Source: Minisyncoccota bacterium (lineage in GTDB: Bacteria > Patescibacteriota > Minisyncoccia > Phycocordibacterales > UBA9973). From it: DNA of 64,000 nt. Numbering within the stretch: the first letter of the stretch is position 1; each line of letters begins with the position of its first letter. Below the pieces are notes generated by a model. It did not search any database, was not told the origin of the DNA, and saw only the letters and a program-made list of their open reading frames with translations. Where the stretch lies: assembly GCA_036405895.1 (NCBI GenBank), contig DASWWS010000002.1, positions 124,029 through 188,028 on the forward strand, in the 5' to 3' direction. The position numbers and the translations under genes were made by a program. Of the stretch, positions 3,834-61,090 are shown one piece after another.

Positions 3834-3868
3834 AACAGCCTAACGAGGACCGTCCTCGTTAGGCTGTT
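3834..3868. terminator. GGACNGTCC-core palindromic hairpin (AACAGCCTAACGAGGACCGTCCTCGTTAGGCTGTT) followed by TTTTT
   Basis: Perfect inverted repeat with a T-run. Member of a dispersed family listed in findings. Confidence 0.75.
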
Positions 3869-3880
3869 TTTAAGTACGTA

Positions 3881-4312
3881 TTAGTACTGAGGCTGAGGCT
3901 CGTGCTTCATCAAGCGCATCAGGTGCGAAAGCGAGTATCGGCCGGGACCCTGCACCAAAAGCGGGATGAGGGCTGCAATGAATACGAGGTTCACTTCCCA
4001 TCCGCCGAGGAATTCCATGTTCATCAAATTCTTTACAACAAATGCAGCAACAATCATGACAATAATAAGGAGGAATGAAACAATCTCGGTTCCAATACCC
4101 ACAATGAGCGCCAGACCGCCGATTGTTTCAACAAGCGTCACAATCCATGCCATGAGTCCCGCAAGCGGGAATCCCCATGCAACGAAGCCTTCCGTTACCG
4201 CCTCAATCCCCATGTTGAACTTCTGCAAGCCATGAAGGAAGAAAGCAATACCGACAATAATGCGGACAATCAACAGCGCTGTATTTATTTTGCCTTTGAA
4301 TATATTTCTCAT
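3881..4312 (-). CDS. DoxX-family integral membrane protein
   Basis: 143 aa with four predicted TM helices. LHGLQKF...GG motif typical of DoxX. Confidence 0.6.
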   Translation of the reverse strand: MRNIFKGKINTALLIVRIIVGIAFFLHGLQKFNMGIEAVTEGFVAWGFPLAGLMAWIVTLVETIGGLALIVGIGTEIVSFLLIIVMIVAAFVVKNLMNMEFLGGWEVNLVFIAALIPLLVQGPGRYSLSHLMRLMKHEPQPQY

Positions 4313-4345
4313 GTACTAAAGTGTATCACTGATAGGTATAACAGA

Positions 4346-4376
4346 AAACTAGCAAGGACGGTCCTTGCTAGTTTTT
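4346..4376. terminator. GGACGGTCC-core palindromic hairpin (CTAGCAAGGACGGTCCTTGCTAG) flanked by A/T runs
   Basis: Inverted repeat seen directly. Confidence 0.7.
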
Positions 4377-4398
4377 TATTTTTGCGGAGACGGCGAGA

Positions 4399-4579
4399 AT
4401 TTCTCCCTCGCCTCTCGTTGTGTCAGACACACTTCCTCGGGCTGGTCACCAGCTCAGTAGATTTCTTTGCTAAGAAATCATACTTCCGCTGTTCGAATCT
4501 CACCCGCAATGCAGTTTGCATTGCTCGTCTCCGCGAATAAAAATGGCCCGACATTAGGTCGGACTCATTTTTATACTCG
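4399..4579. ncRNA. Structured tRNA-associated module B, homologous to 3501-3693. It is bounded by a 15-nt copy of the tRNA-Ser 3' end at 4384-4398.
   Basis: See module A. Closing stem GCGGAGACG...CGTCTCCGC. Minus-strand T-arm-like GCGAG-GGAGAAATT-CTCGC. Terminator hairpin at 4531-4582. Confidence 0.5.
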
Positions 4580-4664
4580 CGGAGACGGCGAGATTCGAAC
4601 TCGCGAGGCTGTGACACCTGCCTCCTTAGCAAGGAGGTACAATCGACCACTCTGACACGTCTCC
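4580..4664 (-). tRNA. tRNA-Ser(GCU)
   Basis: Hand-folded: acceptor GGAGACG/CGTCTCC, anticodon stem CCTCC/GGAGG with loop TTGCTAA (anticodon GCT), long variable arm, T-arm GCGAG-TTCGAAT-CTCGC. Confidence 0.85.
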
Positions 4665-4725
4665 AGTACCGCCACTGTATCATGAAAATACAGTTTTTTA
4701 AAGACTACCCTGCTATACTCTATAC

Positions 4726-5025
4726 ATGACCACTACACACAAAGTACTTGTTGGAATTCTTATCATTATTGTTATTGCGCTTCTTGCGCGCTACGTTGTT
4801 TTTAAAGAAAAGTTCGATGAATGGGGTGCAGGACTCCAGCGTATTGAAGACTGGCAGACTGAGTACAAGCAAAAGAACCCAAATGCTTCCAAAGAAGAAA
4901 TGGATGCTGCATTTGAAGCTGGCATGGACAACATCACTGAGTGGAAAGCAGAGTATAAGCGCGATAATCCAGGCGCGACAGATGCCGAGGCGGATGCTGC
5001 ATTTTCCGCAATGTGGAATAACTAA
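4726..5025 (+). CDS. Small membrane-anchored protein with an internal ~28-aa duplication
   Basis: One N-terminal TM helix. Repeats EDWQTEYKQKNPNASKEEMDAAFEAGM and TEWKAEYKRDNPGATDAEADAAFSAMW. Confidence 0.45.
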   Translation: MTTTHKVLVGILIIIVIALLARYVVFKEKFDEWGAGLQRIEDWQTEYKQKNPNASKEEMDAAFEAGMDNITEWKAEYKRDNPGATDAEADAAFSAMWNN

Positions 5026-5041
5026 TTCTATTTACTGATAT

Positions 5042-9576: not shown

Positions 9577-9650
9577 CCGCTCTTAGCTCAGTTGGTTAGA
9601 GCGCCGAGCTTATACCTCGGTGGTCCATGGTTCGAATCCATGAGGGCGGA
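9577..9650 (+). tRNA. tRNA-Ile(UAU)
   Basis: Hand-folded: acceptor CCGCTCT/AGGGCGG (one G-U pair), D-arm GCTC-AGTTGGTTA-GAGC, anticodon stem CCGAG/CTCGG with loop CTTATAC, T-arm CATGG-TTCGAAT-CCATG. Confidence 0.8.
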
Positions 9651-9744
9651 CATTAAGTAAACAAATATGCAGTATGCCTCTGAGGCAATGGCGTGTAGCG
9701 TTTCGACCCCAGGGAGAGGCGGACAAGTGCTATACTGTACACAT

Positions 9745-10215
9745 ATGAATGAATTTGTAGCAAAGAAACTCGGCGAAGTGCTCGCCTTTAACCAAGTCGG
9801 CACGGACACCTATGAAAAAGGAAAAGAAGCACTCATCGCAGTACTGGGAGCTGAACGTTTTGCGGATATTGAAGACAAGAACCGCATTCACGGAGAAGCA
9901 GTGATGAAGATCGCGACCGACGCGGGCATGATCGACACAACGCTTGCAAAAGCCGAAAAGACCGGAGAGAAGCTCAAGGCTATGCGCGACCTCTATGTTG
10001 GTGACCAATGGGACAATGCCACAGAGCTGATGGAATGGAGCGGATTTTTCGAAGGCGCAGCAATCGTGCACTGGGCGCTGGTGCGCGGTGCGGCAGAAGG
10101 CATGAATGACGAAACCCTCCTCGAACTTTCAAACGAAGGAGTGAATTGGCACTATGAGCTTTTGGAAATGGCTGAAAGCGAACTCGGCACCACCGGACAG
10201 AACAAGGCTTCCTAA
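9745..10215 (+). CDS. Hypothetical protein
   Basis: The ORF-track start at 9667 overlaps the tRNA, so the internal Met (MNEFVAKKLGEV) is more likely. No family recognised. Confidence 0.45.
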   Translation: MNEFVAKKLGEVLAFNQVGTDTYEKGKEALIAVLGAERFADIEDKNRIHGEAVMKIATDAGMIDTTLAKAEKTGEKLKAMRDLYVGDQWDNATELMEWSGFFEGAAIVHWALVRGAAEGMNDETLLELSNEGVNWHYELLEMAESELGTTGQNKAS

Positions 10216-10219
10216 TAAT

Positions 10220-10281
10220 CAGAAGGACCGTCCTTCTGAAAATAAAAACAACCTAACGAGGACCGTCCTCGTTAGGTTGTT
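10220..10281. terminator. Two tandem GGACCGTCC-core hairpins (CAGAAGGACCGTCCTTCTG and AACAACCTAACGAGGACCGTCCTCGTTAGGTTGTT) between convergent genes
   Basis: Perfect inverted repeats, the second followed by TTTTT. Confidence 0.75.
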
Positions 10282-10289
10282 TTTATTGT

Positions 10290-12188
10290 TTAAAGCTCGA
10301 TTTTCTTTAATGGAATGCCGTGAGCGGAAATAATTGCTTCATATTCCGGCTGTTCGAGCGTTTCCACTTCGATTAGCTTTGCGGTGATTGCTTCGAGCAC
10401 ACCCTTGTGTTCGGTAAGAACAGTGCGGGCACGCTCAAATCCTTCTTTCATGATGCGCTGCACTTCGGAGTCGACAAGTGCACTAGTCTGCTCTGAATAT
10501 TCTTTTCCTTTCACTCCTTCGCCGAACATTGCGCGGCCTCCGTCGTTTTCAAGGGCAAGCGGGCCGATGGCATCGCTCATCCCCCATCGTGTCACCATGG
10601 CGCGTGCAAGCGCGGTTGCAACCTGAAGGTCGTTTGAAGGACCGGTTGTCACGTCCCCAAAGATTGATTCTTCTGCAACGTATCCTGCAAGCGACATTGC
10701 AATGTCGTCGAGATATTCTTTCTTGGTGGTAAGCTTTCGCTCTTCAAGCGGAAGCTTCAGCGTGTACCCACCGGCGCGCCCTCGTGCAACAATAGAAACT
10801 TTGTGCACCGGGTCAGCATCCGGAAGAACTGATGCAACAAGCGCATGCGCTGCTTCATGATACGCCGTGATTTTCTTTTCTTTCTTTGTCAGCAAATGGC
10901 TCTTGCGCTCAGGCCCGATCATCACTTTTTCAATGGAGCGTACAAGGTCAAACTGCGATATCTTCTTTCGATTTTCGCGTGCTGCCAAGATTGCACCTTC
11001 GTTCATTAATGAGTAGAGGTCGGCTCCGGAGAATCCGGGTGTGCGCTCTGCTATCACCTTGAGATTCACGTCTTCTGCAAACGGCTTTTTGGTGCTGTGC
11101 ACATTCAAAATGTCTTCGCGGTCGCGACGGTCTGGAAGGTCAAGCATCACTCGGCGGTCAAATCGGCCTGGACGCAACAGTGCTGGGTCCAATACATCGC
11201 TTCGGTTCGTTGCCGCCATCACGATTACCTTGTCGTTCGGTTCAAAGCCGTCCATCTCCACCAATATTTGGTTGAGTGTCTGTTCTCGCTCGTCGTTTCC
11301 ACCGCCATATCCGCCTCCGCGTACGCGTCCTACCGCATCAATTTCATCGATAAAAATAATGGACGGTGCTGCGCGCTTTGCCATCTTGAAAAGGTCGCGC
11401 ACGCGCGATGCGCCCACACCGACAAACATCTCAACAAATTCTGATCCTGAAAGATGGAAGAACGGCACACTTGCCTCCCCCGCTACAGCGCGAGCCAAGA
11501 GCGTCTTCCCTGTTCCTGGTGCACCGGCGAGCAATACTCCTTTTGGAATGCGCGCTCCGATATCCAAAAACTTTTTTGGATTCTTCAAAAAGTCCACAAT
11601 TTCTTTGAGTTCTTCCTTGGCTTCGCGCGCACCTGCAACATCTTTGAATGTTACCCTGTTTGTCGTATCGCTTGGGTCAGTGATGCGCGCTTTTGACTGC
11701 CCGAAATTAAATGCCTGCATGCCAGCACCCTTTGCCTGGCGTGTAAGCATCCAAAAAAAGAATCCAATCAATACTACCGGCAAAAGTATTGGGAGAATGG
11801 TAAGGAAAAAGAATGCGAGGCCTGATGCGCTGGCAACAGTAATGTCGACTGCGCTGATGCGAGGCTCTTCAACACCATATGCTGCCAATGTTTCCACCAA
11901 TGAAGCACTTGGTTCTTTTTTGCTTTCAAGAATTGTCTCGTCTGTTTTTGTAACAGTGAGCGCTTGGTCGTCGATGACAATGCTCTTCACCTCCCCTGCC
12001 TGCACAAGGCGTGCAACTTCTGAAAGGGTCACCACTTCGTTCTTTTCTGTCCCCATACCAGAGACAACAGAGTAGCCGGCAGTAAGGAGTGCGAAGATAA
12101 GGAGGGTTGAAAATATATAGGAAGAAAGAGAGCGCTTGGGAGGCGTCTTTTTTATAGGGTTCGGTGTAGGGATTTCTTGTTTGGACAT
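10290..12188 (-). CDS. ftsH: ATP-dependent zinc metalloprotease FtsH
   Basis: Walker A GAPGTGKT, second region of homology, and HEAAHA zinc motif. 632 aa. Confidence 0.95.
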
Positions 12189-12455
12189 AGGCTTTATTAT
12201 ACATAAAAACGATAAAAACGCCTTTTAGGGGGTATCGACCTCCAGGTTACTAAATATTTTTCAGGGTATCGCCTCACAAATCACTAAGCATAATTCTTCG
12301 CTCCACTCGAATTCTGCCAAGTGTTCGCGAGCCCGGCTCGGTTCCGCCATAGGCGGATACCTGCGCCTTTTCGATACCCACGCAAGACAAGCAGTTGCCC
12401 TGTTCCATCTCCACCTAAAAAACAAAAAACGCCCAAGGGCGCTAATGTTGTTACA
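12189..12455 (-). promoter_or_regulatory. Structured region between ssrA and ftsH with TATAAT 7 nt upstream of the ftsH ATG, repeated CGATACCC motifs, and the ssrA intrinsic terminator (12423-12446)
   Basis: Minus strand reads ...GCGCCCTTGGGCGC-TTTTTTGTTTTTT, a terminator. Three CGATACCC motifs follow. GTATAATAAAGCCT then ATG. Confidence 0.5.
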
Positions 12456-12841
12456 GGTGGAGATGGGGGTATCGAAACCCCGTGCAAATGATCACGAACA
12501 AGTACTTCTCCATGCGTAGTACGATTTAATTGTTAAGACAGAATCTCAAAACCGTACAAAACGATTCATGTCCGAGCCTCGATTGTTTCGGAGTACTGAC
12601 GAGACACGCAGTACTTCCTACGTTCGATGAATGTTGCCGCGACTACGTTATCGAACATCACGTAGAGCGACACCGGATTGACCTAAATTTAGGCGAATGC
12701 CGGAGCGAAGTTTCCAAAATATGGAGACTTCACTGATGCTGTGCTGTTGCCAGGTAAGCGTTCGGACGAATTTTACGAGATACGTCCATTCTCGGCATGC
12801 ATACAGGCCCGATACATCAAATGTCGAAACCTTTCATCCCC
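12456..12841 (-). ncRNA. ssrA: tmRNA (ssrA)
   Basis: Minus strand 5' end GGGGAUGAAAGGUUUCGAC matches the tmRNA 5' consensus. The GCAUGCCGAG...CUCGUAAAA PK1 region is almost identical to E. coli tmRNA. A tag reading frame ends ...GNFAPAFA-UAA (stop at 12689-12691). The 3' T-arm-like GGGGT-TTCGATA-CCCC is followed by acceptor strand CATCTCC-A-CC, which pairs with the 5' GGGGATG using one G-U. It is adjacent to smpB. Confidence 0.8.
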
Positions 12842-12863
12842 AAAGTTGCAATACAGAGCAACT

Positions 12864-13008
12864 TTGGCGCCAGGAGTCGTTTTCGACATTTGTCGAAAAC
12901 TATCGTGGTGCAAAAATTACTGTGCCCTGCTGAAGCTCCATAACAAATTTGGCGCCAGGAGATTTTTTTAGCTTCGCTAAAAAAATTCGTGGTGCAAAAG
13001 CGCCAGGA
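12864..13008. repeat. Tandem 85-bp repeat, 2.1 copies. Each unit is GGCGCCAGGAG-hairpin-TCGTGGTGCAAAA, lying between smpB and ssrA.
   Basis: Unit 1 hairpin GTTTTCGACA-TTT-GTCGAAAAC and unit 2 hairpin TTTTTTAGC-TTC-GCTAAAAAA show compensatory changes between the conserved flanks. Confidence 0.7.
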
Positions 13009-13032
13009 GTTCTATTTGGAAAATCACACTCT

Positions 13033-13473
13033 CTATTGAGCCCCTTCGCGCCTTAGCTCCCGATCAAGGTCGCGCGCTTTGAGCGTTTCTCGTTTGTCGA
13101 AGTTCTTTTTCCCTTTCGCTATTGCGATTTGTACCTTTACGATACTCCCTTTATTATACAACGATATAGGCACTACCGTCAAACCCTTGCTCGAAAGCGC
13201 CCGTAACAAATCATAGAGCTCTTTTTTATTCACTAAAAGCTTTCGGGTGCGATACGGATCATACGCCGAAGAAACATTCTTCTCCTGCCAGGCAGGAATA
13301 TGAGCGCCAAGAAGATAGAGTTCTCCCCCGAGCACTTGCACATAGGCCCCATTGAGGCTGCCGTGATTTGCTTTGAGGGATTTCACTTCAGTACCGAGAA
13401 GCTGTATGCCCGCTTCGAGTGTTTCCTCGAAAGAGTAGTCATGCGATGCTTTTTTATTCCGGATAAATTCCAT
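13033..13473 (-). CDS. smpB: SsrA-binding protein SmpB
   Basis: KKASHDYSFEETLEAGIQLLGTEVKSLK...RTRKLLVNKKE matches the SmpB family. Start moved to MEFIRNKK, since the ORF-track N-terminal extension is hydrophobic junk. Confidence 0.9.
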   Translation of the reverse strand: MEFIRNKKASHDYSFEETLEAGIQLLGTEVKSLKANHGSLNGAYVQVLGGELYLLGAHIPAWQEKNVSSAYDPYRTRKLLVNKKELYDLLRALSSKGLTVVPISLYNKGSIVKVQIAIAKGKKNFDKRETLKARDLDRELRREGAQ

Positions 13474-13557
13474 ACTAGACCAATCGTACCATGTATGAAC
13501 AAATATTGACATATCCGCATAACATGCGATAATAGTGACAAAACAAAATTGATAACT

Positions 13558-13923
13558 ATGCAAAGTGAACAAAAAACCCGGTATTCCGACTCTGAACTAA
13601 GAGAGTTCAAAGCGCTCATAGTGGAAAAACTAAAAAGCAGCCGCGAAGAATTAGCAGACTTTTTAAGCCAGATGAGCATCGACAACGAAAAAGTTTCGTT
13701 GAGTGACTACAGTGCCGTAACAGAGGAAAAAGAATACCTTGGCAAGCAGGCGGGCCGCAAGAAAACATTTATTCAAAACCTGGAAAATGCACTGATACGC
13801 ATTGAAAACAAGACGTACGGTATCTGCCGGATAACAGGTAATCTGATACCGAAAGGGCGTTTACTTGCAGTACCTCACGCTACGTTATGCATGGAGGCAA
13901 AATTGAAACAATCAGCCGCATAA
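13558..13923 (+). CDS. DksA/TraR-family transcription factor-like protein
   Basis: Coiled-coil N-terminus and C-terminal C-x-x...C zinc-finger-like region (YGICRITGNLIPKGRLLAVPHATLC). Only a partial Cys set. Confidence 0.5.
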   Translation: MQSEQKTRYSDSELREFKALIVEKLKSSREELADFLSQMSIDNEKVSLSDYSAVTEEKEYLGKQAGRKKTFIQNLENALIRIENKTYGICRITGNLIPKGRLLAVPHATLCMEAKLKQSAA

Positions 13924-13940
13924 CAACACTCATCGAAAAA

Positions 13941-13975
13941 AGCCAAACCGCATGCGGTTTGGCTTTTGTTTTTAC
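13941..13975. terminator. Bidirectional terminator AAAAAAGCCAAACCGCATGCGGTTTGGCTTTTGTTTTT
   Basis: Perfect hairpin flanked by A- and T-runs between convergent genes. Confidence 0.8.
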
Positions 13976-14559
13976 AGCTCAAGATCAATTCCAATTCCGA
14001 GCATTACGGCTTTTGGTCCGACAGTTGCCGAAACATTAAACAATCCAAGTGTGTACTGAGTACGAATACCGGTCACCGCTTCCGTTTGGCTATAGAGCCC
14101 GAGCGAAAGCTTCTCTCCTACTCCGTACATCACCGACGTCATTTGGAAAAATCCATACGGGCGAGAATAATACGGATTGGTGTACAGCATAAACTTCCCT
14201 TTCTGGCTCTCCTCTTGTGCATGCGATTCAAAATACGCATATGCATTAAGGCTTGCACTGGTGCGGCCCCGAGCAAAATCAATACCCGGGCCAAGTGAAA
14301 GTTCAACATAGTTATCGCCTGGTGCAAATGCAATCAAGGGCCCAAGAGAGACGCCCAGAAGCCCTGGTTCATTTACAACAAATCCAAATACCCCAACTCC
14401 TCGCTTGTTTGTATGAGCAAACGATGCCCATTGAAAAGTTTCAAGACCTTTTGCATCAAACTGTTTGGTTGCTTGAGCTTCGGCGCTTACAAGAGTTTGT
14501 TGCGCCATTGCTGTACTTGTTGCCACCAAGGCAAGAAGTACTGTGAGTAATTTCTTCAT
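13972..14559 (-). CDS. Secreted beta-rich hypothetical protein
   Basis: Signal peptide MKKLLTVLLALVATSTAMA. Alternating hydrophobic pattern. Confidence 0.5.
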   Translation of the reverse strand: MKKLLTVLLALVATSTAMAQQTLVSAEAQATKQFDAKGLETFQWASFAHTNKRGVGVFGFVVNEPGLLGVSLGPLIAFAPGDNYVELSLGPGIDFARGRTSASLNAYAYFESHAQEESQKGKFMLYTNPYYSRPYGFFQMTSVMYGVGEKLSLGLYSQTEAVTGIRTQYTLGLFNVSATVGPKAVMLGIGIDLEL

Positions 14560-14617
14560 TTTCCTTTGTTAATTTGCGTATATTATAGCACAAATTGAAC
14601 AAAAAATCAAGTATATA

Positions 14618-15391
14618 TTATATGGTGTACTCTCCTATTCGCACTCTCTTAATACGGTACGCAAGGGCTGGAATACCCGCTGTTGCTCCTACAACTTCCG
14701 CAAGGGCTCTCATATATGTACCCGAAGTTGCAGTAATACGAATCGTGATAAAAGGAATTTCTTTTTCTCCCTCTTTTGCAATTACTTCCATCCACTTTTT
14801 TATAATTTCTTCTTGCCGAAAGTCTCCTGCAACATTTTGTATAACAGGCAGTGTTTCCTCAATACCTTCTGCAAGTGTTCTGTATTCTATTCCCTGCAAT
14901 TGAACACCGGTAACCTGCACTTTCTTTGTTGGCACCCTTACCACTGTTCCCGCTCTCGCATGAACAAAAAGAGGCATTCCGTCTACCGTTCGAGAGGAAT
15001 ACAGAGGATATGCAAGTTCAGTTACCCCTTCCAAACTTTTAACAGCATTCTCAATAGATTCTTTTACGATAGCTGTGTCTGTATTAATTGCCGTAACAAG
15101 GCCCAGCATATCCGCCGTATCAGTGCTCACCCCTAATAACACCGTGAGCTCATAGGTTTTATCTAGTCCTAAAAGGTCATCTTTATAAAATCGAGCATCG
15201 CCCTTAAGGATAATCACCACTCCTTCGGCCATTGGATCGAGCCTTCCGGCATAGGTAAGCTTGATTGCATCCGTTAGACCCTGTTCACTGCGAAAGCGCT
15301 CTAAAAGGACTGCAAGTGTCTCGCCGGGGTGCTTCCACACAGCAAAAACATCTTGACTATTTGGGCCTTTTTGGGTATCATGTGAAGACAT
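14618..15391 (-). CDS. truB: tRNA pseudouridine(55) synthase TruB
   Basis: YAGRLDPMAEGVV (the GxLDP catalytic Asp motif). Start moved to the Met before FAVWKHPGETL. Confidence 0.85.
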   Translation of the reverse strand: MSSHDTQKGPNSQDVFAVWKHPGETLAVLLERFRSEQGLTDAIKLTYAGRLDPMAEGVVIILKGDARFYKDDLLGLDKTYELTVLLGVSTDTADMLGLVTAINTDTAIVKESIENAVKSLEGVTELAYPLYSSRTVDGMPLFVHARAGTVVRVPTKKVQVTGVQLQGIEYRTLAEGIEETLPVIQNVAGDFRQEEIIKKWMEVIAKEGEKEIPFITIRITATSGTYMRALAEVVGATAGIPALAYRIKRVRIGEYTI

Positions 15392-15409
15392 TATTGTACT
15401 ACTATAGCT

Positions 15410-15925
15410 TTGAAGGAACGAATCAACAAACAAATACACGCATCAGAACTTCGCGTCGTTGACGAGGAGGGTGAAAACAAAGGAGTCATGTCTCTGACAG
15501 AGGCATTGGCTTTGGCTGAAAGCCTGGGCGTGGACTTGATTGAGACCGGGCCGAATGCGCGCCCCCCTATTGCAAAGCTTATGGAGTTCGGTAAGTACCA
15601 GTACGAACAGAAGAAAAAGCTCCAAAAAGCACGCACAGGAGCTAAGCCTACGGAAACAAAGTCCATTCAGATTAAGATTGGTACCGGCGACCACGACCTC
15701 GAGCTGAAGGCAAAAACCGCCAGCAAGTGGCTCAAGGAAGGACACCGCATCAAAGTAGAGCTTTTCCTTCGAGGACGCTCAAAGGGCATGGAAGAGCCAT
15801 TTTTAAAGGAACGACTCGACCGGGTCTTGCATTTTATCACCGAACAGTATAAGATTGCGGAACCACATAAGCGCTCTCCTAAGGGTTTGGCTATCGTTAT
15901 CGAACGAGACAGAGCAGCAAAATAG
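15410..15925 (+). CDS. infC: translation initiation factor IF-3
   Basis: IF3 N- and C-domains. Part of the infC-rpmI-rplT synteny. The true start may be a non-AUG codon upstream. Confidence 0.85.
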   Translation: MKERINKQIHASELRVVDEEGENKGVMSLTEALALAESLGVDLIETGPNARPPIAKLMEFGKYQYEQKKKLQKARTGAKPTETKSIQIKIGTGDHDLELKAKTASKWLKEGHRIKVELFLRGRSKGMEEPFLKERLDRVLHFITEQYKIAEPHKRSPKGLAIVIERDRAAK

Positions 15926-15934
15926 ACATAATAT

Positions 15935-16126
15935 ATGGCAGCAAAGACCAACAAATCATATACAAAACGCCTTAAGCTTACCAAAACAGGTAAGATTATT
16001 GGACGAAAGCCAGGATTTAACCACTTTAATGCAAAGCAGTCACGAGTACACCAGCTCAACGGCAAGCGAGGCGTCGAATTCCCAATGACTCCGAAAGAGA
16101 TTGGCCTTTTTATCCCTCATCGATAA
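15935..16126 (+). CDS. rpmI: 50S ribosomal protein L35
   Basis: MAAKTNKSYTKRLKLTKTGKI... family match and synteny. Confidence 0.9.
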   Translation: MAAKTNKSYTKRLKLTKTGKIIGRKPGFNHFNAKQSRVHQLNGKRGVEFPMTPKEIGLFIPHR

Positions 16127-16144
16127 TAATTTTAATATACCTAT

Positions 16145-16492
16145 ATGACACGAGTAAAACGAGGAACAATTGCAAACAAGCGCCGAAAGAACGTATTAGC
16201 CCAGGTAAAGGGGTACCGTTTTGGCCGCAGCACCAAGGAGCGAATGGCAAAGGATGCTATTGCCCACGCTGGGACCTACGCATTTGCACACCGCCGCGAC
16301 AAGAAAAGCGACAAGCGCCGATTGTGGCAGGTGCAGATCAATGCAGCAGTTCGCGAGCTTGGCCTCACCTACTCTGTGTTTATCGATAAGCTCAAGAAAG
16401 CGAACATCGAAGTAGACCGCAAAATCCTCTCTACTCTTGCACAAAACAGCCCTGCATCATTCAAGCGAATCTTTGATACAGTAAATAAATAA
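16145..16492 (+). CDS. rplT: 50S ribosomal protein L20
   Basis: MTRVKRGTIANKRRK... family match. Confidence 0.9.
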   Translation: MTRVKRGTIANKRRKNVLAQVKGYRFGRSTKERMAKDAIAHAGTYAFAHRRDKKSDKRRLWQVQINAAVRELGLTYSVFIDKLKKANIEVDRKILSTLAQNSPASFKRIFDTVNK

Positions 16493-16510
16493 GAATAATA
16501 AAAAATCTCC

Positions 16511-16540
16511 CGTTAAACGGGAGATTTTTTATTATTTTAT
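16511..16540. terminator. Bidirectional terminator AAAAATCTCCCGTTAAACGGGAGATTTTTT
   Basis: Hairpin plus T-run between convergent rplT and the pilin gene. Confidence 0.8.
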
Positions 16541-16998
16541 GATGGCCAGTACCCTTCAATAAAACAAGAGTACCCGGAATTTGTGTGATTCTGGTCACAG
16601 CGATTGTTCGGTGCCCAGTTTTCAAATATAGTAAAAATAATGTAGCCCTGATTACTGTTTGTCGGAGCATACTGAAGACGGCACTGTATATTAGCGGGAT
16701 CTTTGGGGTACGCCGGAAGAAACCCCTCTGTCACTAAGCTCTGCATAAAGTTATTGTTCGTTGTTGTATACCCCTCAGTTCCCACACATTCGTTTTCAGT
16801 ATAGTTGGGATAGTATCCATACTTATCGTAATAAAACTCAAGCGCTTTTTGTATTTCCCGAATAGTTGAAACGCGCTGTGCATCACGTCCTTTTGCCCGA
16901 GCACTGTTTAACGACGCGAGAACAACTGATGCCAAAATGCCGATCACTGCGATGACGACGAGGAGTTCGATGAGGGTGAAACCGTTTTGTTTTTTCAT
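16537..16998 (-). CDS. type IV pilin-like protein (prepilin)
   Basis: GFTLIELLVVIAVIGILASVV prepilin motif. Paralogous to 658..1110 and 17546..18016, sharing FYYDKYGYYP...ENECVGTEGYT. Confidence 0.8.
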   Translation of the reverse strand: MKKQNGFTLIELLVVIAVIGILASVVLASLNSARAKGRDAQRVSTIREIQKALEFYYDKYGYYPNYTENECVGTEGYTTTNNNFMQSLVTEGFLPAYPKDPANIQCRLQYAPTNSNQGYIIFTIFENWAPNNRCDQNHTNSGYSCFIEGYWPS

Positions 16999-16999
16999 A

Positions 17000-17524
17000 T
17001 TACCAATTTGTTCGCTCTGCATTCATCATCGCTCCTGGGGTAAACACTCCCGCTGTACACTGTGTCCCAGACCGGTCAGGGTCATAGAAACCAAAGCTTG
17101 CTGGCAAGGGCGGACACGAGACGCTTTCAATGGTTTGGTGGGCAATAAACTTGTAATCAATGCCATCTGAATTATATAAATAGCAGCCGTGCGTGGTAAC
17201 AGGCTTTGGGTCAAGTGGGAGGACTGGTATGTAGGTTGGAGCCAGGTTTGGAATATATCCGGTCGCACCCATGGTACCATATGAACCATAGGCAGAACAG
17301 TTTCCCCGCCATCCTCCTCCGCTCGAAGGATACACACCATAGTCTGCCATATACAGCTCAAGTGCATTCCTGACCTGTGTCAAATCAGCCTTTCTTTTTG
17401 CATCTCTCGACTTTGCCCGAGCACTGTTTAACGACGCGAGAACAACTGATGCCAAAATGCCGATCACTGCGATGACTACTAACAGTTCAATAAGGGTGAA
17501 ACCTCTTTGGCGAGCGCGAAACAT
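17000..17524 (-). CDS. type IV pilin-like protein (prepilin), divergent C-domain
   Basis: MFRARQRGFTLIELLVVIAVIGILASVV. A 64-bp segment is identical at the nucleotide level to 16895-16958. Confidence 0.75.
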   Translation of the reverse strand: MFRARQRGFTLIELLVVIAVIGILASVVLASLNSARAKSRDAKRKADLTQVRNALELYMADYGVYPSSGGGWRGNCSAYGSYGTMGATGYIPNLAPTYIPVLPLDPKPVTTHGCYLYNSDGIDYKFIAHQTIESVSCPPLPASFGFYDPDRSGTQCTAGVFTPGAMMNAERTNW

Positions 17525-17545
17525 GTATCCTCAGTATATCAGCAA

Positions 17546-18016
17546 TTACGAAGGCCACTCGCCTTCCATGAAGCAGGAATATCCTACATCCGTATGTTCC
17601 TGATTGCAGCGGCCGTTTGGCGGCAGTTTCTCAAACTTCACAAAAACAATGTAACTTTGATTGTTAGCATTGTATACGCCGTATTGCACATTGCAGTTTA
17701 CATTGTTGGGATCCTTTGGGTATGCCGGCAAAAACCCTTCGGTGACCAAGCTCTGCATAAAATTATTGTTCACTGTTGTGTACCCTTCCGTACCGACGCA
17801 TTCATTTTCCGTCTCGTGCGGATAATACCCATATTTGTCATAATAAAATTCCAGTCCTTTTTGTATTTCACGGATGGTGGCTGCCCGCTGCGCATCGCGT
17901 GCCTTTCCTCTCGCACTGTTCAAGGATGTCATCACAACGGATGCCAAAATCCCAATCACTGCGATGACGACCAAAAGTTCAATAAGGGTGAAGCCTCGAC
18001 TGGCATTAGATTTCAT
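17546..18016 (-). CDS. type IV pilin-like protein (prepilin)
   Basis: MKSNASRGFTLIELLVVIAVIGILASVV. Closest paralog of 16537..16998. Confidence 0.8.
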   Translation of the reverse strand: MKSNASRGFTLIELLVVIAVIGILASVVMTSLNSARGKARDAQRAATIREIQKGLEFYYDKYGYYPHETENECVGTEGYTTVNNNFMQSLVTEGFLPAYPKDPNNVNCNVQYGVYNANNQSYIVFVKFEKLPPNGRCNQEHTDVGYSCFMEGEWPS

Positions 18017-26110: not shown

Positions 26111-26776
26111 TTATTTCTTAGCGCCGTTAAAGACCATACCCTTGTAAATCCATACTTTGATACCGATACCACCGTATGCGAGGCGTGCTGTTTCGTGTGC
26201 GTAGTCAATATCCGCTCGAAGGGTCTGAAGTGGAACACTTCCGCGCTTTACCACTTCTGTACGAGAAATTTCAGCGCCGCCAAGACGTCCGCCAACATAG
26301 AACTTTGCACCCTGTACTCCGCGAACAGACATCACTTTCTCAATAAGAGTCTTCATAACACGACGGTACGGCATGCGCTTTTCAAGCCCTTCAGCAATCA
26401 TAAATGCAACGATTTTCGCATCCCCTTCTGGGTTTGTTACTTCGATGATTTCAAGCTTGATGTCGTCAGTGACAGTAAGGCCTGCCTGCTTAAGCGCCTT
26501 TACTAAGTCAGTCTTAAGCTTTGTTGCACCTTCACCACTTCGTCCGATAACCATACCTGGGCGTGAGGTGCGGATGATAACGCGGATAGACTTTTGCGCG
26601 CGTTCAAGTTCAACGCTTGATACATAAAAACCGCGAAGACGCTTTTCGAGGAACTGACGAATTGTTACATCAACCGCAAGGTTGTTAACATAGTTCTTGT
26701 CAGTTGCAAACCAGCGTGATTTCCAATCACGGAGGATAACAAGGCGGTGTGCATAAGGGTGTACTACTTTAGACAT
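26111..26776 (-). CDS. rpsC: 30S ribosomal protein S3
   Basis: KH domain. Start moved to MSKVVHPYAHRLVIL. Confidence 0.9.
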   Translation of the reverse strand: MSKVVHPYAHRLVILRDWKSRWFATDKNYVNNLAVDVTIRQFLEKRLRGFYVSSVELERAQKSIRVIIRTSRPGMVIGRSGEGATKLKTDLVKALKQAGLTVTDDIKLEIIEVTNPEGDAKIVAFMIAEGLEKRMPYRRVMKTLIEKVMSVRGVQGAKFYVGGRLGGAEISRTEVVKRGSVPLQTLRADIDYAHETARLAYGGIGIKVWIYKGMVFNGAKK

Positions 26777-26786
26777 ATTATAAAAA

Positions 26787-27131
26787 TTATTTAGATGATT
26801 TCTTAACTGGCGCTTCACCCAAAGTGACGTCGACATGGCTGGTGCGTTTATTGATGCGTTTTGCAACACCCATCGCACGAGCGCGGATACGCTTCATTAC
26901 GAGTCCCTTGTTTACTTCGATATTCTGGATAACGAGAGTAGAGGTGTCGGCACCGAGGTTGTAGGCATTTGCAGCAGCGCTCTTGATAAGCTTCTGGATA
27001 GGCTCAGCAGCGCGCTTTGGCATATATGAGAGCACAGTGTCAGCAGCAGCAAGTGACTTGCCTTTAACAGCGTTCGCTACGAGGCGGACTTTGCGGGGAC
27101 TTTGACGATAGTTAGTGAGTGATGCTTTCAT
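26787..27131 (-). CDS. rplV: 50S ribosomal protein L22
   Basis: Family match and synteny. Confidence 0.9.
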   Translation of the reverse strand: MKASLTNYRQSPRKVRLVANAVKGKSLAAADTVLSYMPKRAAEPIQKLIKSAAANAYNLGADTSTLVIQNIEVNKGLVMKRIRARAMGVAKRINKRTSHVDVTLGEAPVKKSSK

Positions 27132-27155
27132 ACGAATGTGTTAACTGAATAGAGT

Positions 27156-27503
27156 TTATTTCTTCTTAGCGTCTCCGCCTGAAGCTTTTGCTGACTTAGC
27201 AGCAGTGATTTCAGCTTCTTTTTTCTTCTGGTCGATATCCTTCTGCATCTTACCTCCGTGACGGGTAAACTTGCGAGTCGGTGAGAATTCACCCAAGCGG
27301 TGCCCTACCATATCTTCTGTTACGAGGACTTCGAGGTGAGCGCGTCCGTTGTGCACTCCAAAAGTGAAGCCAACCATTTCAGGCGCGATTTGTGAATCGC
27401 GTGACCATGTCTTGATAACGCCTGCAGCCATAGGCTGCTTGCCTTCAATCTTTTTGAGTAATTTTGGGTCAATGTATGGCCCTTTTGCGAGTGATCGTGT
27501 CAT
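27156..27503 (-). CDS. rpsS: 30S ribosomal protein S19, with a Lys-rich C-terminal extension
   Basis: [16 protein letters not shown] core. The C-terminal ~25 aa [28 protein letters not shown] is extra. Confidence 0.9.
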
Positions 27504-27623
27504 GTGAGAAAAAAAGAGGCTCTTTTTGAGCTCCGCATATCTTAGCAAATTACAGGGCAATGTCAAATATATGCTTTAACTAAAAAATTATTATGGATAA
27601 AAAGAGAAAAACCAAGGAATTAC

Positions 27624-28022: not shown

Positions 28023-28057
28023 AGCGTGAGTATAGCAAACAAACAGCAGATACCCCT

Positions 28058-28166
28058 CCTAGCAAGGACGGTCCTTGCTAGATTTGTTTAACGAGGAAAT
28101 TCCCTTCTCTCAGAAGGACTGTCCTTCTGAGAGAACAAAAAACTCCCGAACGGGAGTTTTTTGCGA
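28058..28166. terminator. Cluster of three hairpins: CTAGCAAGGACGGTCCTTGCTAG, CAGAAGGACTGTCCTTCTG, and AAAAACTCCCGAACGGGAGTTTTTTG
   Basis: Two members of the GGACNGTCC-core family plus an ordinary terminator, between rplB and dgkA. Confidence 0.75.
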
Positions 28167-28181
28167 TAGTTACTATAGAGA

Positions 28182-29027: not shown

Positions 29028-29040
29028 AATAATAACTCGG

Positions 29041-29352: not shown

Positions 29353-29356
29353 ATAA

Positions 29357-30936: not shown

Positions 30937-30937
30937 T

Positions 30938-42730: not shown

Positions 42731-42769
42731 CTAACGAGGACGGTCCTCGTTAGAAGGACCGTTCTTCTG
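42731..42769. terminator. GGACGGTCC-core hairpins (CTAACGAGGACGGTCCTCGTTAG plus a degenerate AGAAGGACCGTTCTTCT)
   Basis: Between comEC-N and rnhA. Confidence 0.65.
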
Positions 42770-52048: not shown

Positions 52049-52116
52049 AGGATAAGTGTAACAGATTTATAATAAAAAAAGCGCTCCCCTGGGGAGCGCA
52101 AAGTGCAAAAAAATAA

Positions 52117-52627: not shown

Positions 52628-54373
52628 CTATTCGCTGACAACTCGCAATACGTCATCAATGGTTGTTTTTCCTTGAGCAGCCTGGAAAATGCCATCTTCA
52701 AGCATTGTCATCATCCCCTCTTTTTTTGCTTGTGCTTCCACTTCGTCCGCGGTGCCATTGCGTAAAATAATTTCCTTGATTGTCGGCGTGATTTTCATTA
52801 CCTCATGAATGCCGATACGGCCCTTGTATCCGTCTTCGCTTTCTTCTGAGGCCTTTGGTTTATAAAAGGGAATCTTCTCCCATGGCATACCCTTTTCAAT
52901 TATGTGCTCAGCTTCCAAAAACTTTCTCATTCGATCAAGGTCAAGCGAGTGCCCGAGCGTTGAAACTTCCACTGCGGTAAGAAAATATGTTTCTTTAGCA
53001 GCAGTCAGACGGCGCACCAAGCGCTGTGCCAAAATGGCTTTTGCGGTCGAAACGATAAGAAACGGCTCAACGCCCATATCAATCAATCGAGGGATAGCGC
53101 CAGCGGCTGAGCTTGTGTGGATAGTGGAGAGCACCAAGTGCCCGGTAAGGGCCGCATTCACTGCCAAGTCTGCAGTTTCGCCATCGCGCACCTCTCCAAC
53201 CATGATGATGTTGGGGTCTTGTCGCAAAAGCGCACGCAAGCCGTTGGCAAAGGTCATACCGATGTCAGACTTTACTTGCGTTTGATTGATGCGCGGCATC
53301 TGATACTCGATCGGGTCTTCAACGGTTGAGATGTTTACCTCCGGCGTATTTAAAATATCGAGCAATGTATAGAGCGTAGTAGTTTTTCCGCTTCCAGTCG
53401 GCCCTGACGCCAAGATAATGCCTGAGTGCTGGCGAAGTGCTTCGTGGATTGCTTCGAGCCCGCTTCCATGAAAGCCTAAGCCTTCAAGCGTAAAGCCGTG
53501 CGTGCTTTCGCGCAAAATACGGACTACTGCCTTTTCGCCATAGTATGTTGGAATGGTCGAGACACGAAACGATACGGGCGTCTCATCAAGCACCATTTTA
53601 AAGCGCCCATCCTGCGGCAAGCGCTTCTCGTCGAGCTTAAGACTCGAGAGCACTTTGATTCGCGCCGTAATTGCCGGAGCTGCACCCTTTGGCAAAGTCA
53701 TTGCGTCATGAAGAATGCCATCGATACGGTAGCGGATTATCATTTCATTTTCTCCGGGCTCCATGTGGATGTCAGACGCGCCCTGCATGATAGCGTGCGA
53801 AATCAATGAGTCCACAATCTTGATTACCGGCAAGTCTTCAGCAAGGGCCTTGAGGTCTCCCACTGATGCGTCCGCATTCACTTGCGGAACATTCTTCAGC
53901 GACAATGCTTCAGTTTGAATAATAGAGTCGAACTCTGCTTGGAGGCTCTTTCGATACTGCTGGAGCACGGCTTTGATAGTTTCGGTATCTGTCAGGCGCG
54001 GCAAGATGCGGAGCTGCGTCTTTTTTTTGATAAAGTCGATAGCGGGCAAGTTATCGATGTCGAGCATTGCAACCTCCAAATCGCTTCCCGACTTTTTATA
54101 CGCAACAATATTGTAGCGGCGCGCGATTGATTCAGGAATCAGCGCAAGCGTGTCCGGGTCGAGACGCTCTTTTGTCAGCCCAATAAATGGAATACCCAAT
54201 ACATATGCCTCTAATCGCTTGATCTCGCTTTCTTTCACTTTTCCCGCATTCAAAAGGAAGTCTGAAAGCGACTGATCTTTATTTTCTCGAGCATCGTAGG
54301 ATTCAATGTCGGCAAGAGATGCGATATTTGCATCAAGTACAAGATTGCGGAGTTTTATTTGATCGATCACCAT
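52628..54373 (-). CDS. pilB: type IV pilus assembly ATPase PilB / GspE family
   Basis: N-terminal GSPII_E_N domain, Walker A SGPTGSGKTTTLY, Asp and His boxes. Confidence 0.9.
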   Translation of the reverse strand: MVIDQIKLRNLVLDANIASLADIESYDARENKDQSLSDFLLNAGKVKESEIKRLEAYVLGIPFIGLTKERLDPDTLALIPESIARRYNIVAYKKSGSDLEVAMLDIDNLPAIDFIKKKTQLRILPRLTDTETIKAVLQQYRKSLQAEFDSIIQTEALSLKNVPQVNADASVGDLKALAEDLPVIKIVDSLISHAIMQGASDIHMEPGENEMIIRYRIDGILHDAMTLPKGAAPAITARIKVLSSLKLDEKRLPQDGRFKMVLDETPVSFRVSTIPTYYGEKAVVRILRESTHGFTLEGLGFHGSGLEAIHEALRQHSGIILASGPTGSGKTTTLYTLLDILNTPEVNISTVEDPIEYQMPRINQTQVKSDIGMTFANGLRALLRQDPNIIMVGEVRDGETADLAVNAALTGHLVLSTIHTSSAAGAIPRLIDMGVEPFLIVSTAKAILAQRLVRRLTAAKETYFLTAVEVSTLGHSLDLDRMRKFLEAEHIIEKGMPWEKIPFYKPKASEESEDGYKGRIGIHEVMKITPTIKEIILRNGTADEVEAQAKKEGMMTMLEDGIFQAAQGKTTIDDVLRVVSE

Positions 54374-54470
54374 TGCTTGTAGTATAGCAACAACACTGCA
54401 AGTATGCGCAATAAAAAAACCACTTCCGTGTTGAAAGTGGTTTTTTTATTTTTTCTACAATGCCCGCAAA

Positions 54471-59019: not shown

Positions 59020-59208
59020 GAATACATAGAGTATAGTGCACATACGACAACACGTGCAAGCGTTGTAAAGAAAATGTGTGGATAAAAAGTTTTTCTCCTC
59101 TGTCTTGCGTCCTGTAGCGAGTATGCTATACATATATATGTACATGTCCCGGGCACACCTATGGGGCATTTTTAGTAAATTAGTAGGACAAAATAATAAC
59201 AATCACAT

Positions 59209-60501
59209 ATGTTAGACATCAAAGCATTAAAATTAGCACTCGAACAATTGGAAACTGAACGCCGCATCGGCCGCGACAAGCTCGTCGATGCGATCGAGCA
59301 GTCACTCGCAGCAGCGTATAAGAAAGAATACGGCAAAAAGGGCCAGGTCATCCGCGCGATGATCGACCTTGATGCAGGCGCTGTTTCATTTGAACAAGTA
59401 AAGACCGTTGTTGACGACACGCTCGTGCGCTTTTTGGCAGAAGACGAGGAGATTGCAGAAGACGATACAGATCTTCGCGAGCGCTTCAACGAAGAGAAGC
59501 ATATTCTTCTCGACGACGCCCAGATGATTAAAGCTGGCGCCACTATCGGCGACGAGCTAGTATTCACTCTCGAACCAAAAGACGATTTTGGCCGCATTGC
59601 TGCACAAACTGCAAAGCAAGTCATCATGCAGCGCATCCGCGAAGCGGAACGCACCAGCATCATGGAAGAGTTCGGCGGAAAAGAAGGCGATATTATCTCA
59701 GGCTACATTCAAAAAGTTGACCGAGGAAGCGTATTCGTGGACTTCAACCGCGCAACAGGCATTATCCCGATTAGCGAGCAGATTCCCGGCGAGCGCTACG
59801 TTCGCGGTGCCCGCATTCGAGCATACCTCTACCATGTCGAAGACACTCCTCGCGGAATCACCCTTCGCCTCTCCCGCACTCATCCAAAATTCCTCGAAAA
59901 GCTCTTTGCGCTTGAAAGCCCAGAAGTTGCAAGCGGCGTAGTTGAAATCAAAGCAATTGCTCGCGAACCAGGAAGTCGTTCGAAAATTGCTGTATGGACA
60001 GACGACGCAAACATTGACCCAGTTGGTTCATGTGTAGGCCAGAAAGGTGTGCGCGTTTCAACTGTAATGAACGAGCTCGGGGGTGAAAAAATCGATATCA
60101 TCGAATGGTCTCCTGAGACTGCAGAGTTCGTGCAGAAGTCTCTCTCACCTGCGAGAGTACTCGACCTTGAGCTCAACGATGAAGAACACAAAGTAAGCGT
60201 TGAAGTTACTCCCGACCAACTCTCTCTTGCAATCGGTAAGGGTGGACAAAACGTGCGCCTTGCAGCAAAGCTCACTGGCTGGAAAATCGACATCAAGGGC
60301 TCTGAAGCAGAGGTAACCGAAGAGAGTGAAAGCACAGAGGGCGACGACTTTGTTTCACTCAAAGATCTCGCCGTGTCTGACACGGCAACAGAAGAATCTT
60401 CTGAAGAAGTTGCAGAAGAAACTGTAACAGAAGCTGAACCAGTTGCAGAAGAAACAACTGAAAAAGTTGCTGACGAAGTATCAGAAGAAGAATCAAAATA
60501 A
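59209..60501 (+). CDS. nusA: transcription termination/antitermination factor NusA
   Basis: N-terminal domain, S1 domain (GIIPISEQIPGERY), two KH domains, and an acidic C-terminal tail. Confidence 0.9.
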   Translation: MLDIKALKLALEQLETERRIGRDKLVDAIEQSLAAAYKKEYGKKGQVIRAMIDLDAGAVSFEQVKTVVDDTLVRFLAEDEEIAEDDTDLRERFNEEKHILLDDAQMIKAGATIGDELVFTLEPKDDFGRIAAQTAKQVIMQRIREAERTSIMEEFGGKEGDIISGYIQKVDRGSVFVDFNRATGIIPISEQIPGERYVRGARIRAYLYHVEDTPRGITLRLSRTHPKFLEKLFALESPEVASGVVEIKAIAREPGSRSKIAVWTDDANIDPVGSCVGQKGVRVSTVMNELGGEKIDIIEWSPETAEFVQKSLSPARVLDLELNDEEHKVSVEVTPDQLSLAIGKGGQNVRLAAKLTGWKIDIKGSEAEVTEESESTEGDDFVSLKDLAVSDTATEESSEEVAEETVTEAEPVAEETTEKVADEVSEEESK

Positions 60502-60505
60502 TTCT

Positions 60506-61036
60506 ATGAATCTCCTTCACGAAATTACTGCAGGAAACAATGTGCCCGACATCATCAATGTCATCATTGAAATTCCAAAAGGTTCAAAAAATAAATACGA
60601 AATCGACAAGGAAACCGGCCTCATCATGCTCGACCGTGCAATGCACACGAGCCAAGACTATCCTTTCGACTACGGCTTCATGCCGCAAAGCCACTGGGAA
60701 GACGGCGACCCATTGGATGTTGTAGTCCTCACCACCTATCCGCTCGCGCCCGGCATCTTGGTAAAGGTTCGCCCAGTCGGGATTGTAAACATGATCGACG
60801 ACGGCGACTCTGATGCGAAGATCATCGCAGTGCCTGACAAGGATCCTCGATTCGACCATGTACAAGACCTCTCTGACGTAAACAAGCACACCATCAAAGA
60901 GATCGAGCATTTTTTTCTGACGTACAAACAAATTCAGAAGAAAGACGTTTCGATTGATGGAATCGGGAACAAGGCAGACGCTCAAGCTGCAATCCTCAAA
61001 AGCCAAGAACTCTACAAAGAAAAGTTTCAGAAATAA
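60506..61036 (+). CDS. ppa: inorganic pyrophosphatase
   Basis: EIPKGSKNKYEIDKETG and DGDPLDVVVL family motifs. Start moved to MNLLHEITAG. Confidence 0.9.
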   Translation: MNLLHEITAGNNVPDIINVIIEIPKGSKNKYEIDKETGLIMLDRAMHTSQDYPFDYGFMPQSHWEDGDPLDVVVLTTYPLAPGILVKVRPVGIVNMIDDGDSDAKIIAVPDKDPRFDHVQDLSDVNKHTIKEIEHFFLTYKQIQKKDVSIDGIGNKADAQAAILKSQELYKEKFQK

Positions 61037-61055
61037 TCAAACCAATAGGTTTATA

Positions 61056-61090
61056 CAAAAACGAGCAAGGACGGTCCTTGCTCGTTTTTG
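61056..61090. terminator. GGACGGTCC-core hairpin CAAAAACGAGCAAGGACGGTCCTTGCTCGTTTTTG
   Basis: Perfect inverted repeat flanked by A-run and T-run after ppa. Confidence 0.75.

Follow-up and report, generated by a model that had tools for sequence, protein, structure and literature searches.

Dispersed palindromic hairpins in a Minisyncoccota genome: probable members of a REP-type family with a RAYT-like transposase partner in the Patescibacteria

The DNA analysed here is a stretch of 64,000 nucleotides from a Minisyncoccota bacterium (GenBank assembly GCA_036405895.1, contig DASWWS010000002.1, positions 124,029 to 188,028 of the forward strand), hereafter called the window. It encodes a tmRNA, a tRNA-Ile(UAU), two tRNA-Ser, ftsH, a ribosomal-protein cluster, comEC and pilB, and between its genes lie nine hairpins, 17–47 nt long, that share a core and resemble repetitive extragenic palindromes (REPs). 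A scan for perfect inverted repeats gave eight perfect palindromes, each centred on one single base, and one degenerate copy. These elements, with one relic half-copy, are listed by window position and without strand; positions of open reading frames (ORFs) and neighbouring genes carry their strand in brackets.

3832–3870: REP-like palindrome, type 1, AAAACAGCCTAACGAGGAC-C-GTCCTCGTTAGGCTGTTTT; 11 nt past the doxX(-) stop and 53 nt before tRNA-Ser(ACU)(-); U-tract after the hairpin on the minus strand, with a terminator-like site there; RNA fold −29.2 kcal/mol, z = −7.5.
4345–4375: REP-like palindrome, type 2, AAAACTAGCAAGGAC-G-GTCCTTGCTAGTTTT; between tRNA-Ser(GCU)(-) and the start of doxX(-); central 23 nt identical to the palindromes that flank RAYT-like genes (see below) in contigs L021, L011 and L026.
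10219–10239: short REP-like palindrome, type 3, TCAGAAGGAC-C-GTCCTTCTGA; 4 nt past the stop of ORF 9667–10215(+); first of a pair, with no U-tract of its own.
10241–10287: REP-like palindrome, type 1; arms of 23 bp, A and T runs included; between the convergent ORF 9667–10215(+) and ftsH(-), and therefore in the form of a bidirectional terminator.
28059–28081: REP-like palindrome, type 2, CTAGCAAGGAC-G-GTCCTTGCTAG; lies upstream of dgkA(-), 37 nt from its start; lacks a U-tract.
28088–28104: relic half-copy, TTTAACGAGGAAATTCC, a type 1 left arm between the hairpins at 28059 and 28105.
28105–28135: REP-like palindrome, type 3, TTCTCTCAGAAGGAC-T-GTCCTTCTGAGAGAA; immediately behind the canonical rplB terminator 28136–28163.
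42731–42753: REP-like palindrome, type 1, CTAACGAGGAC-G-GTCCTCGTTAG; flanked by the stop of RNase H(-) and the start of comEC(-); lacks a U-tract.
42753–42769: degenerate short copy, GGACCGTTC, that is GAAGGAC-C-GTTCTTCTG (also written GAAGGACCGTTCTTC); abuts 42731–42753 and is able to pair with it; hybrid core that joins a GGAC arm to a GTTC arm.
61053–61093: REP-like palindrome, type 2 variant, ATACAAAAACGAGCAAGGAC-G-GTCCTTGCTCGTTTTTGTAT; 17 nt past the ppa(+) stop; U-tract on the plus strand.

All nine intervals named in the initial annotation of this DNA proved to be genuine palindromes, and its three covarying outer-stem types (CTAACGAGG; CTAGCAAGG/CGAGCAAGG; CAGAAGG) were borne out, the changes between them being compensatory so that the arms remain fully complementary in each. 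Its count of at least eleven members did not hold: we count nine, and the two additional one-mismatch matches to the core, at 32069 and 35059, lie inside long ORFs and are missing from the palindrome list. Nor is the core invariant as GGAC(C/G)GTCC, since the central base is T at 28120 and relatives bear a compensated GAAC-N-GTTC. The enrichment that the annotation proposed to check is pronounced: against dinucleotide-preserving shuffles of the window, GGACSGTCC occurs 7 times where 0.17 are expected (none of 100 shuffles reached 7), and AGGACNGTCCT occurs 8 times where 0.05 are expected. Overall density is 1.4 copies per 10 kb (9 in 64 kb), and the hairpins are paired at three of the six sites. 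Because about 14 further terminator-like hairpins of the window are built on ordinary G+C stems and lack such a core, the core is a property of a subset of hairpins and not of every terminator here. Rfam, searched at gathering thresholds, matched only the tmRNA and three tRNAs in the window and none of the hairpins. A k-mer bias, restriction sites and CRISPR-like arrays were weighed as explanations and put aside.

In related genomes, an identical 23-nt palindrome, CTAGCAAGGACNGTCCTTGCTAG, brackets a gene for a transposase of the HUH/Y1 type. It stands on both sides of an ORF of 223–227 aa in L021, L011 and L026, and a metagenome scan with these three proteins returned 80 further loci (56–100% identity), giving 83 genes whose products are 220–227 aa long overall. 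A palindrome lies upstream in 77 of the 83, centred ∼40 nt before the ATG and directly 5′ of the −35/−10 promoter, and downstream in 78, within ∼60 nt of the stop codon. Most of these flanking copies are perfect palindromes with the consensus NNN-GC(A/T)AG(G/A)AC-N-GT(C/T)CT(T/A)GC-NNN, and in about half of the loci a compensated core, GAAC/GTTC, replaces GGAC/GTCC. The outer triplets vary (CTA, CTC, TTC, TAA, TTA, GTA, TCC, TCA, TGC) and are themselves paired. At 59 of 65 loci both flanking copies have the same variable outer triplet, and their central bases are identical in 39 loci and complementary in 24, with any other combination in only 2. The transposase family comprises at least 646 clusters at 90% identity, in which every entry that carries a taxon name belongs to the Patescibacteria, for which Candidate Phyla Radiation (CPR) is another name. 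Existing records annotate these proteins as “transposase” or, in JGI records, as “REP element-mobilizing transposase RayT.”

Upstream of the 5′ palindrome there are often tandem stacks of partial left arms (L089, L091, upstream of position 4001), and partial right arms are stacked downstream of the 3′ palindrome (L048, L079, L052). These stacked arms may be footprints of repeated nicking or copying.

The transposase gene adjoins a pilB/gspE-type ATPase gene in about eight loci, several of them Nomurabacteria-like (L021 2402–4150, L038, L039, L080, L102, L071, L098 and L112). With so few loci, pilB was rejected as a fixed neighbour of the transposase gene. The window has its own pilB (52628–54373, minus strand), and the site upstream of it holds only an ordinary terminator (54410–54450).

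Several lines of evidence place the encoded protein near the REP-associated tyrosine transposases (RAYTs). It scores 25.3 bits against the Pfam family Y1_Tnp (cut-off 23), and its best NCBIfam match is the REP-associated tyrosine transposase model NF047646, at 31–36 bits and thus below the cut-off of 80. Profile sequence searches against the PDB, built from 3 or from 40 sequences, gave no matches. An AlphaFold model (mean pLDDT 84) was compared with known folds, and the only PDB match with E < 0.001 was 4ER8, in which the Escherichia coli RAYT is in complex with a REP hairpin (E = 4.9 × 10−5); the next matches were the TnpA proteins of IS608 and ISDra2. Among 40 homologues, F86 and H87 of the HUH motif (residues 85–87) are invariant and H85 is present in at least 90%, and Y145 and N149 are likewise invariant.

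One residue of this protein tracks one base pair of its flanking hairpins. In a set of 74 distinct proteins, residue 107 is part of the motif K-x-G-[T/V]-G-Y-S, on the helix that follows the HUH strand. All 37 loci whose core is GGAC have Thr at this position, and of the 36 whose core is GAAC, 35 have Val or Ile there (mutual information 0.91 bit); the lone apparent exception, L099, has GGAC at its flanks. Core type was rejected as a clade marker, because identity within a type (0.689) is about that between types (0.681). On a neighbour-joining tree built without these columns the core trait switches ∼25 times, the same as a shuffled trait, and for 29 of 73 proteins the nearest neighbour has the other core type (for example, L087 and L088, which are 86% identical). 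Residue 49 (R/H versus K) in turn tracks the stem variants GCAAG and GCTAG. From a comparative standpoint the covariation argues strongly for base-specific reading of the hairpin tip by the protein, and from it we infer a contact between residue and base.

Searching 185,579 species-representative genomes for the 23-nt pattern CTARCRAGGACNGTCCTYGYTAG gave 36 loci in 26 assemblies. All 20 assemblies with a taxon in the title are Patescibacteria, and the remaining 6 are titled only “bacterium,” so the search of related genomes that the annotation had called for did recover the core, and among taxon-named assemblies only in CPR. The named groups are Parcubacteria, Nomura-, Taylor-, Zambryski- and Staskawiczbacteria, Saccharibacteria, Paceibacterota and Minisyncoccia. 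CTAGCAAGGAC-N-GTCCTTGCTAG is nearly constant in genomes of 29–47% G+C; all four bases occur at its centre, and its short variable stem extensions are also palindromic. Type 1 (CTAACGAGGAC) was seen elsewhere only in the sister genome of the window. Solo copies away from a transposase gene occur in other CPR contigs at 0.55 per 10 kb (1.4 in the window). GGAC-core and GAAC-core copies are found together on single contigs (L023 at 3173, 6137 and 6213; L024 at 724, 1627 and 2171; L013 at 4309), and hybrids with one arm of each core type exist, such as window 42753–42769; L050 is likewise among the contigs listed for mixed core types or hybrids. A phage-borne element was considered and rejected, as viral contigs contained only 2 matches to GCAAGGACNGTCCTTGC (one of them in a contig of 67% G+C), neither of which adjoins a transposase gene.

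Comparison with a close relative indicates rapid turnover of the copies. Contig L037 (Minisyncoccia bacterium Deming_bin.451) is ∼90% identical to and syntenic with window 26545–33798, and the source of the window is itself a CPR bacterium. Where the window carries, behind the rplB terminator, a type 2 copy together with a relic half-arm of type 1 and a type 3 copy, L037 has a single type 1 copy at the identical junction, and its terminator differs in sequence; the type 3 copy at 28105–28135 is absent from L037, within an indel of ∼46 bp. The type 2 and type 1 copies at this orthologous site differ by paired changes in both arms and at the centre, and the elements therefore change far faster than their flanks while perfect symmetry is always kept. 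Contig L030 of the same sister genome has a tsaD-like ORF of 410 aa (3800–5032) that contains two in-frame copies, one of type 3 (4311–4333) and one of type 1 (4844–4872), which encode ...STQKDGPSEK... and ...NLTRTVLVRL..., respectively.

The initial annotation had placed all of the hairpins at gene 3′ ends, often in pairs, and this agrees with what we found: all nine window copies are intergenic and start 3–17 nt past a stop codon or, in one case, just past a canonical terminator, with pairs at half of the sites. When the window and the 36 genome loci are taken together, 55 of 60 copies are intergenic even though ∼86% of the DNA is ORF, and 48 of 60 come after a gene 3′ end. Hairpin centres lie a median of 22.5 nt from the stop codon, and the central base relative to the upstream gene has a modest orientation bias (C 59, G 31, T 26, A 22).

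Whether the copies are terminators, as that annotation labelled them, depends on the copy. The predicted RNA hairpins are very stable (−20 to −29 kcal/mol, z between −5 and −10) and end in a C-N-G triloop closed by A-U. The A/T runs that were said usually to lie on both sides do flank the copies at 3832, 4345, 10241 and 61053 and are absent at 10219, 28059, 28105, 42731 and 42753. Accordingly, only the first four have the form of an intrinsic terminator, a stable stem-loop followed by a U-tract (3832 on the minus strand, 4345 and 10241 on both strands, 61053 on the plus strand), and the label does not suit the other five, two of which (28059 and 28105) sit behind the separate canonical terminator 28136–28163; it suits the two in-frame copies of the sister-genome tsaD no better. 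The four copies with U-tracts probably act as bidirectional intrinsic terminators, and the one at 10241 would plausibly terminate two convergent genes. Elsewhere in CPR, T runs accompany only a minority of copies. Because T runs are so infrequent there, five window copies have no U-tract and two lie behind a terminator of their own, termination looks like a secondary use of some copies rather than the cause of the conserved core. The ordinary terminators of the window at 13938–13967, 16494–16536, 28136–28163 and 52081–52099 are also palindromic nearly to their centres, with formal loops of 0–2 nt, which suggests a general trend to perfect DNA palindromes at gene ends.

We consider it likely that the hairpins are dispersed copies of a REP-type family specific to the Patescibacteria, whose partner is a RAYT-like HUH/Y1 single-strand DNA transposase. 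The initial annotation had suggested a REP-like element recognized by a protein such as a nuclease or recombinase, and the bracketed HUH/Y1 gene in relatives, the fold match to 4ER8 and the covariation of residue and base all support that suggestion. The protein would bind the palindrome as a hairpin on single-stranded DNA, reading the conserved tip AG[G/A]AC-N-GT[C/T]CT, and would then nick and rejoin the DNA, thereby copying, moving or converting elements. For the window it would most likely be encoded elsewhere in the genome and act in trans. Downstream of genes, copies may survive because the damage they cause is slight. When transcribed they would form very stable stem-loops, of which those with A/T runs (3832, 4345, 10241 and 61053) would probably serve as bidirectional intrinsic terminators, and the remainder may be RNA-stabilizing hairpins at 3′ ends or may be neutral.

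A number of observations weigh against this assignment. Neither tblastn nor a profile hidden Markov model found a RAYT homologue in the ∼73 kb available for this genome (the window and an 8.7-kb extension of its right end, L120), nor in a total of ∼97 kb when loci of the sister genome were added, and a look-up made at the window's left edge returned no record; the link to the window therefore rests on the homology of the repeats and on the relatives only. Beyond the 11-nt core, only the type 2 copies (4345, 28059 and 61053) match the palindromes that flank transposase genes, and in the loci examined types 1 and 3 were seen beside no transposase gene. Most species-representative CPR assemblies have only 1–4 exact 23-mers, although assemblies break at such repeats. 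Finally, classical REPs have an unpaired GTAG or CGTC tag and imperfect stems with an essential mismatch, whereas neither window nor flanking copies have such a tag and eight of the nine window copies are perfect with a one-base centre. The E. coli enzyme requires both tag and stem mismatch (PMC3479197).

The family also shares several defining features with REP/RAYT systems, which are known mainly from Proteobacteria. Like those of E. coli (TnpA_REP/YafM with REP and bacterial interspersed mosaic elements) and of Pseudomonas (REPINs), the present family consists of short extragenic palindromes after gene 3′ ends, has an HUH/Y1 gene bracketed by the same palindromes (here in relatives) and finds its best fold match in 4ER8. 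Its protein also co-evolves with the repeat, at residue 107 (∼25 switches) and at residue 49. It includes several repeat sub-types, some copies of which may be terminators or RNA hairpins, and the same holds of REP/RAYT systems, in which several sub-types occur per genome and some copies serve as terminators or RNA hairpins, according to PMC3733652 and PMC3479197. The GTAG and CGTC superfamilies (Di Nocera et al. 2013, PMC3733652) are described as palindromes of 20–40 bp mostly downstream of ORFs with occasional intragenic copies, a description that also fits our copies (including those in the L030 tsaD). Classical REP families bear a GTAG or CGTC tag (PMC3733652), and the present family has neither; the Patescibacteria are not mentioned in the abstract or section list of that paper.

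Other differences concern the form of the repeat and of the protein. Conservation is at the hairpin tip here and at the foot in classical REPs; classical REPs are species-specific, whereas nearly the same repeat occurs here across classes of a phylum; and no REPIN-type doublets like those of Pseudomonas were seen; and most genomes have few copies. Unlike a classical RAYT, the protein has an extra C-terminal helical region of ∼70 aa, and its NF047646 score is under the cut-off. Repeat-built terminators such as the paired DNA uptake sequences (DUS) and Correia elements of Neisseria resemble the present copies in that the repeat doubles as a bidirectional terminator hairpin at some sites, but they differ in that the present family has a cognate HUH transposase and variable outer stems, with no evidence of a DNA-uptake role.

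If the hairpins were simply ordinary bidirectional intrinsic terminators, their shared loop-proximal sequence would derive from RNA-level selection or from common descent and no dedicated protein would be involved, and this we regard as improbable. The position of every copy at a gene 3′ end, the terminator-like score of the four copies with A and T runs, the stability of the RNA hairpins and the near-perfect palindromes among the other window terminators would all follow from it. It does not account for the five of nine copies that have no U-tract, for the two that follow terminator 28136–28163 or for the two in frame inside the tsaD of the sister genome; an RNA hairpin, moreover, has no need of self-complementary loop bases. 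The same 23-mer is kept across genomes of 29–47% G+C and brackets a transposase gene in 77–78 of 83 cases, and one protein residue covaries with one core base pair. The case that the annotation had made against ordinary sequence-independent terminators is strengthened by the bracketing of the transposase gene, the 4ER8 match and the covariation at residue 107.

We also give little credence to the proposal that the hairpins are ends, or miniature derivatives (like palindrome-associated or miniature inverted-repeat transposable elements, PATEs or MITEs), of an active insertion sequence of the IS200/IS605 type rather than a domesticated single-copy REP/RAYT pair. The protein does share with the TnpA of IS608 and ISDra2, its next-best fold matches, a Y1 HUH fold with a Y1_Tnp domain, the HUH motif and the catalytic Tyr; its gene is bracketed by hairpins at both ends, as are the left and right ends of IS608, and gene context varies among loci, with a pilB neighbour in only about eight. 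However, the best fold match is a RAYT and not an insertion sequence transposase, and at ∼225 aa the protein is longer than the TnpA chains of IS608, ISDra2 and IS200 in the fold search (∼125–152 residues). No locus has two gene copies, solo hairpins dispersed without the gene outnumber the transposase genes, the flanking hairpins are perfect and near-identical, and adjacency to pilB is kept in several loci across proteins of 57–100% identity. No tnpB was seen at L021, the only locus at which flanking ORFs were read. Most doubtful of all is that the palindromes serve in duplex form as operators bound by a dimeric regulator, or as competence signals for DNA uptake. Their twofold symmetry, perfect about one base, resembles what a dimer would bind, the promoter of the transposase gene adjoins the upstream copy, and the window encodes ComEC and PilB, with comEC adjoining one copy. 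Yet copies lie just past stop codons at no fixed distance from promoters, and the outer stems vary while remaining complementary, so that the hairpin is preserved and not the sequence. Neisseria and Pasteurellaceae have uptake signal sequences at far higher density (about one per kb), within genes as well, whereas the window has only 1.4 copies per 10 kb, all of them intergenic.

A REP-type family partnered with a RAYT-like transposase thus best accommodates these data, and it appears to be undescribed for the phylum, although automated annotation already names some of the proteins RayT: our literature search found no report that ties REPs or RAYTs to CPR and none of the motif. A wider proposal, which we put forward only tentatively and think unlikely as a whole, is that of a phylum-wide, long-lived system of hairpin and nuclease, in which a tip code (Thr107 for G:C, Val107 for A:T, and Arg49/Lys49 for the next stem position) would set specificity, two orthogonal specificities might coexist in a genome, and the host would use the copies as punctuation at gene ends (termination or RNA 3′ ends) in these minimal genomes, even in frame inside genes. 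Under this proposal the stacked partial arms, together with the same-or-complementary centres of the flanking copies, would point to copying or inversion primed by a hairpin, through a mechanism other than that of E. coli TnpA_REP. A repeat density like that of E. coli is unexpected in an organism of an ultra-small-genome type, as these lineages are thought to be stripped of repeats. The pairing of one residue with one base pair offers a testable specificity rule for an HUH single-strand DNA nuclease, useful for the study of REP-transposase co-evolution and for the engineering of HUH tags. Annotators should be aware that many CPR “terminators” are repeat copies.

The repeat family also explains assembly breaks at these sites. 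The Logan contig L001 (run SRR11449181) is 100% identical to window 10254–16921; one of its ends falls inside the hairpin at 10241–10287 and the other among tandem paralogous ORFs (∼16537–18016) of roughly 70% mutual identity. Both kinds of repeat break short-read assemblies, and metagenome-assembled genomes therefore probably under-count these elements.

Some features of gene arrangement were seen around the copies. The doxX gene (3881–4312, minus strand) is enclosed by two REP-like hairpins (3832 and 4345) and lies, cassette-like, between the two tRNA-Ser genes; in L006, four copies (3905, 4557, 5335 and 5933) similarly punctuate three consecutive small genes. The ribosomal-protein run breaks off after rplB (28182–29027, minus strand); next come a canonical terminator, the pair of REP-like hairpins and a gene for diacylglycerol kinase (27624–28022).

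Two tRNA genes of the window are of unusual kinds. The tRNA-Ser at 3693–3779 (minus strand) has the anticodon ACU in the loop UUACUAA, with A at position 34, and its variable arm is long. A normal tRNA-Ser(GCU) is encoded ∼800 nt away, at 4579–4664 (minus strand), and both share the 3′ trailer CGAGTATAA. A serine tRNA with A34 is unusual in bacteria. The tRNA-Ile at 9577–9651 (plus strand) has the anticodon UAU, an uncommon bacterial means of reading AUA. Lastly, the −10 box ends ∼7 nt before the ATG both at transposase genes (L021 1613–1650 and L011 7187–7220) and at the dgkA of the window (28022–28058), and a −10 box this near the ATG suggests leaderless or very-short-leader mRNAs.

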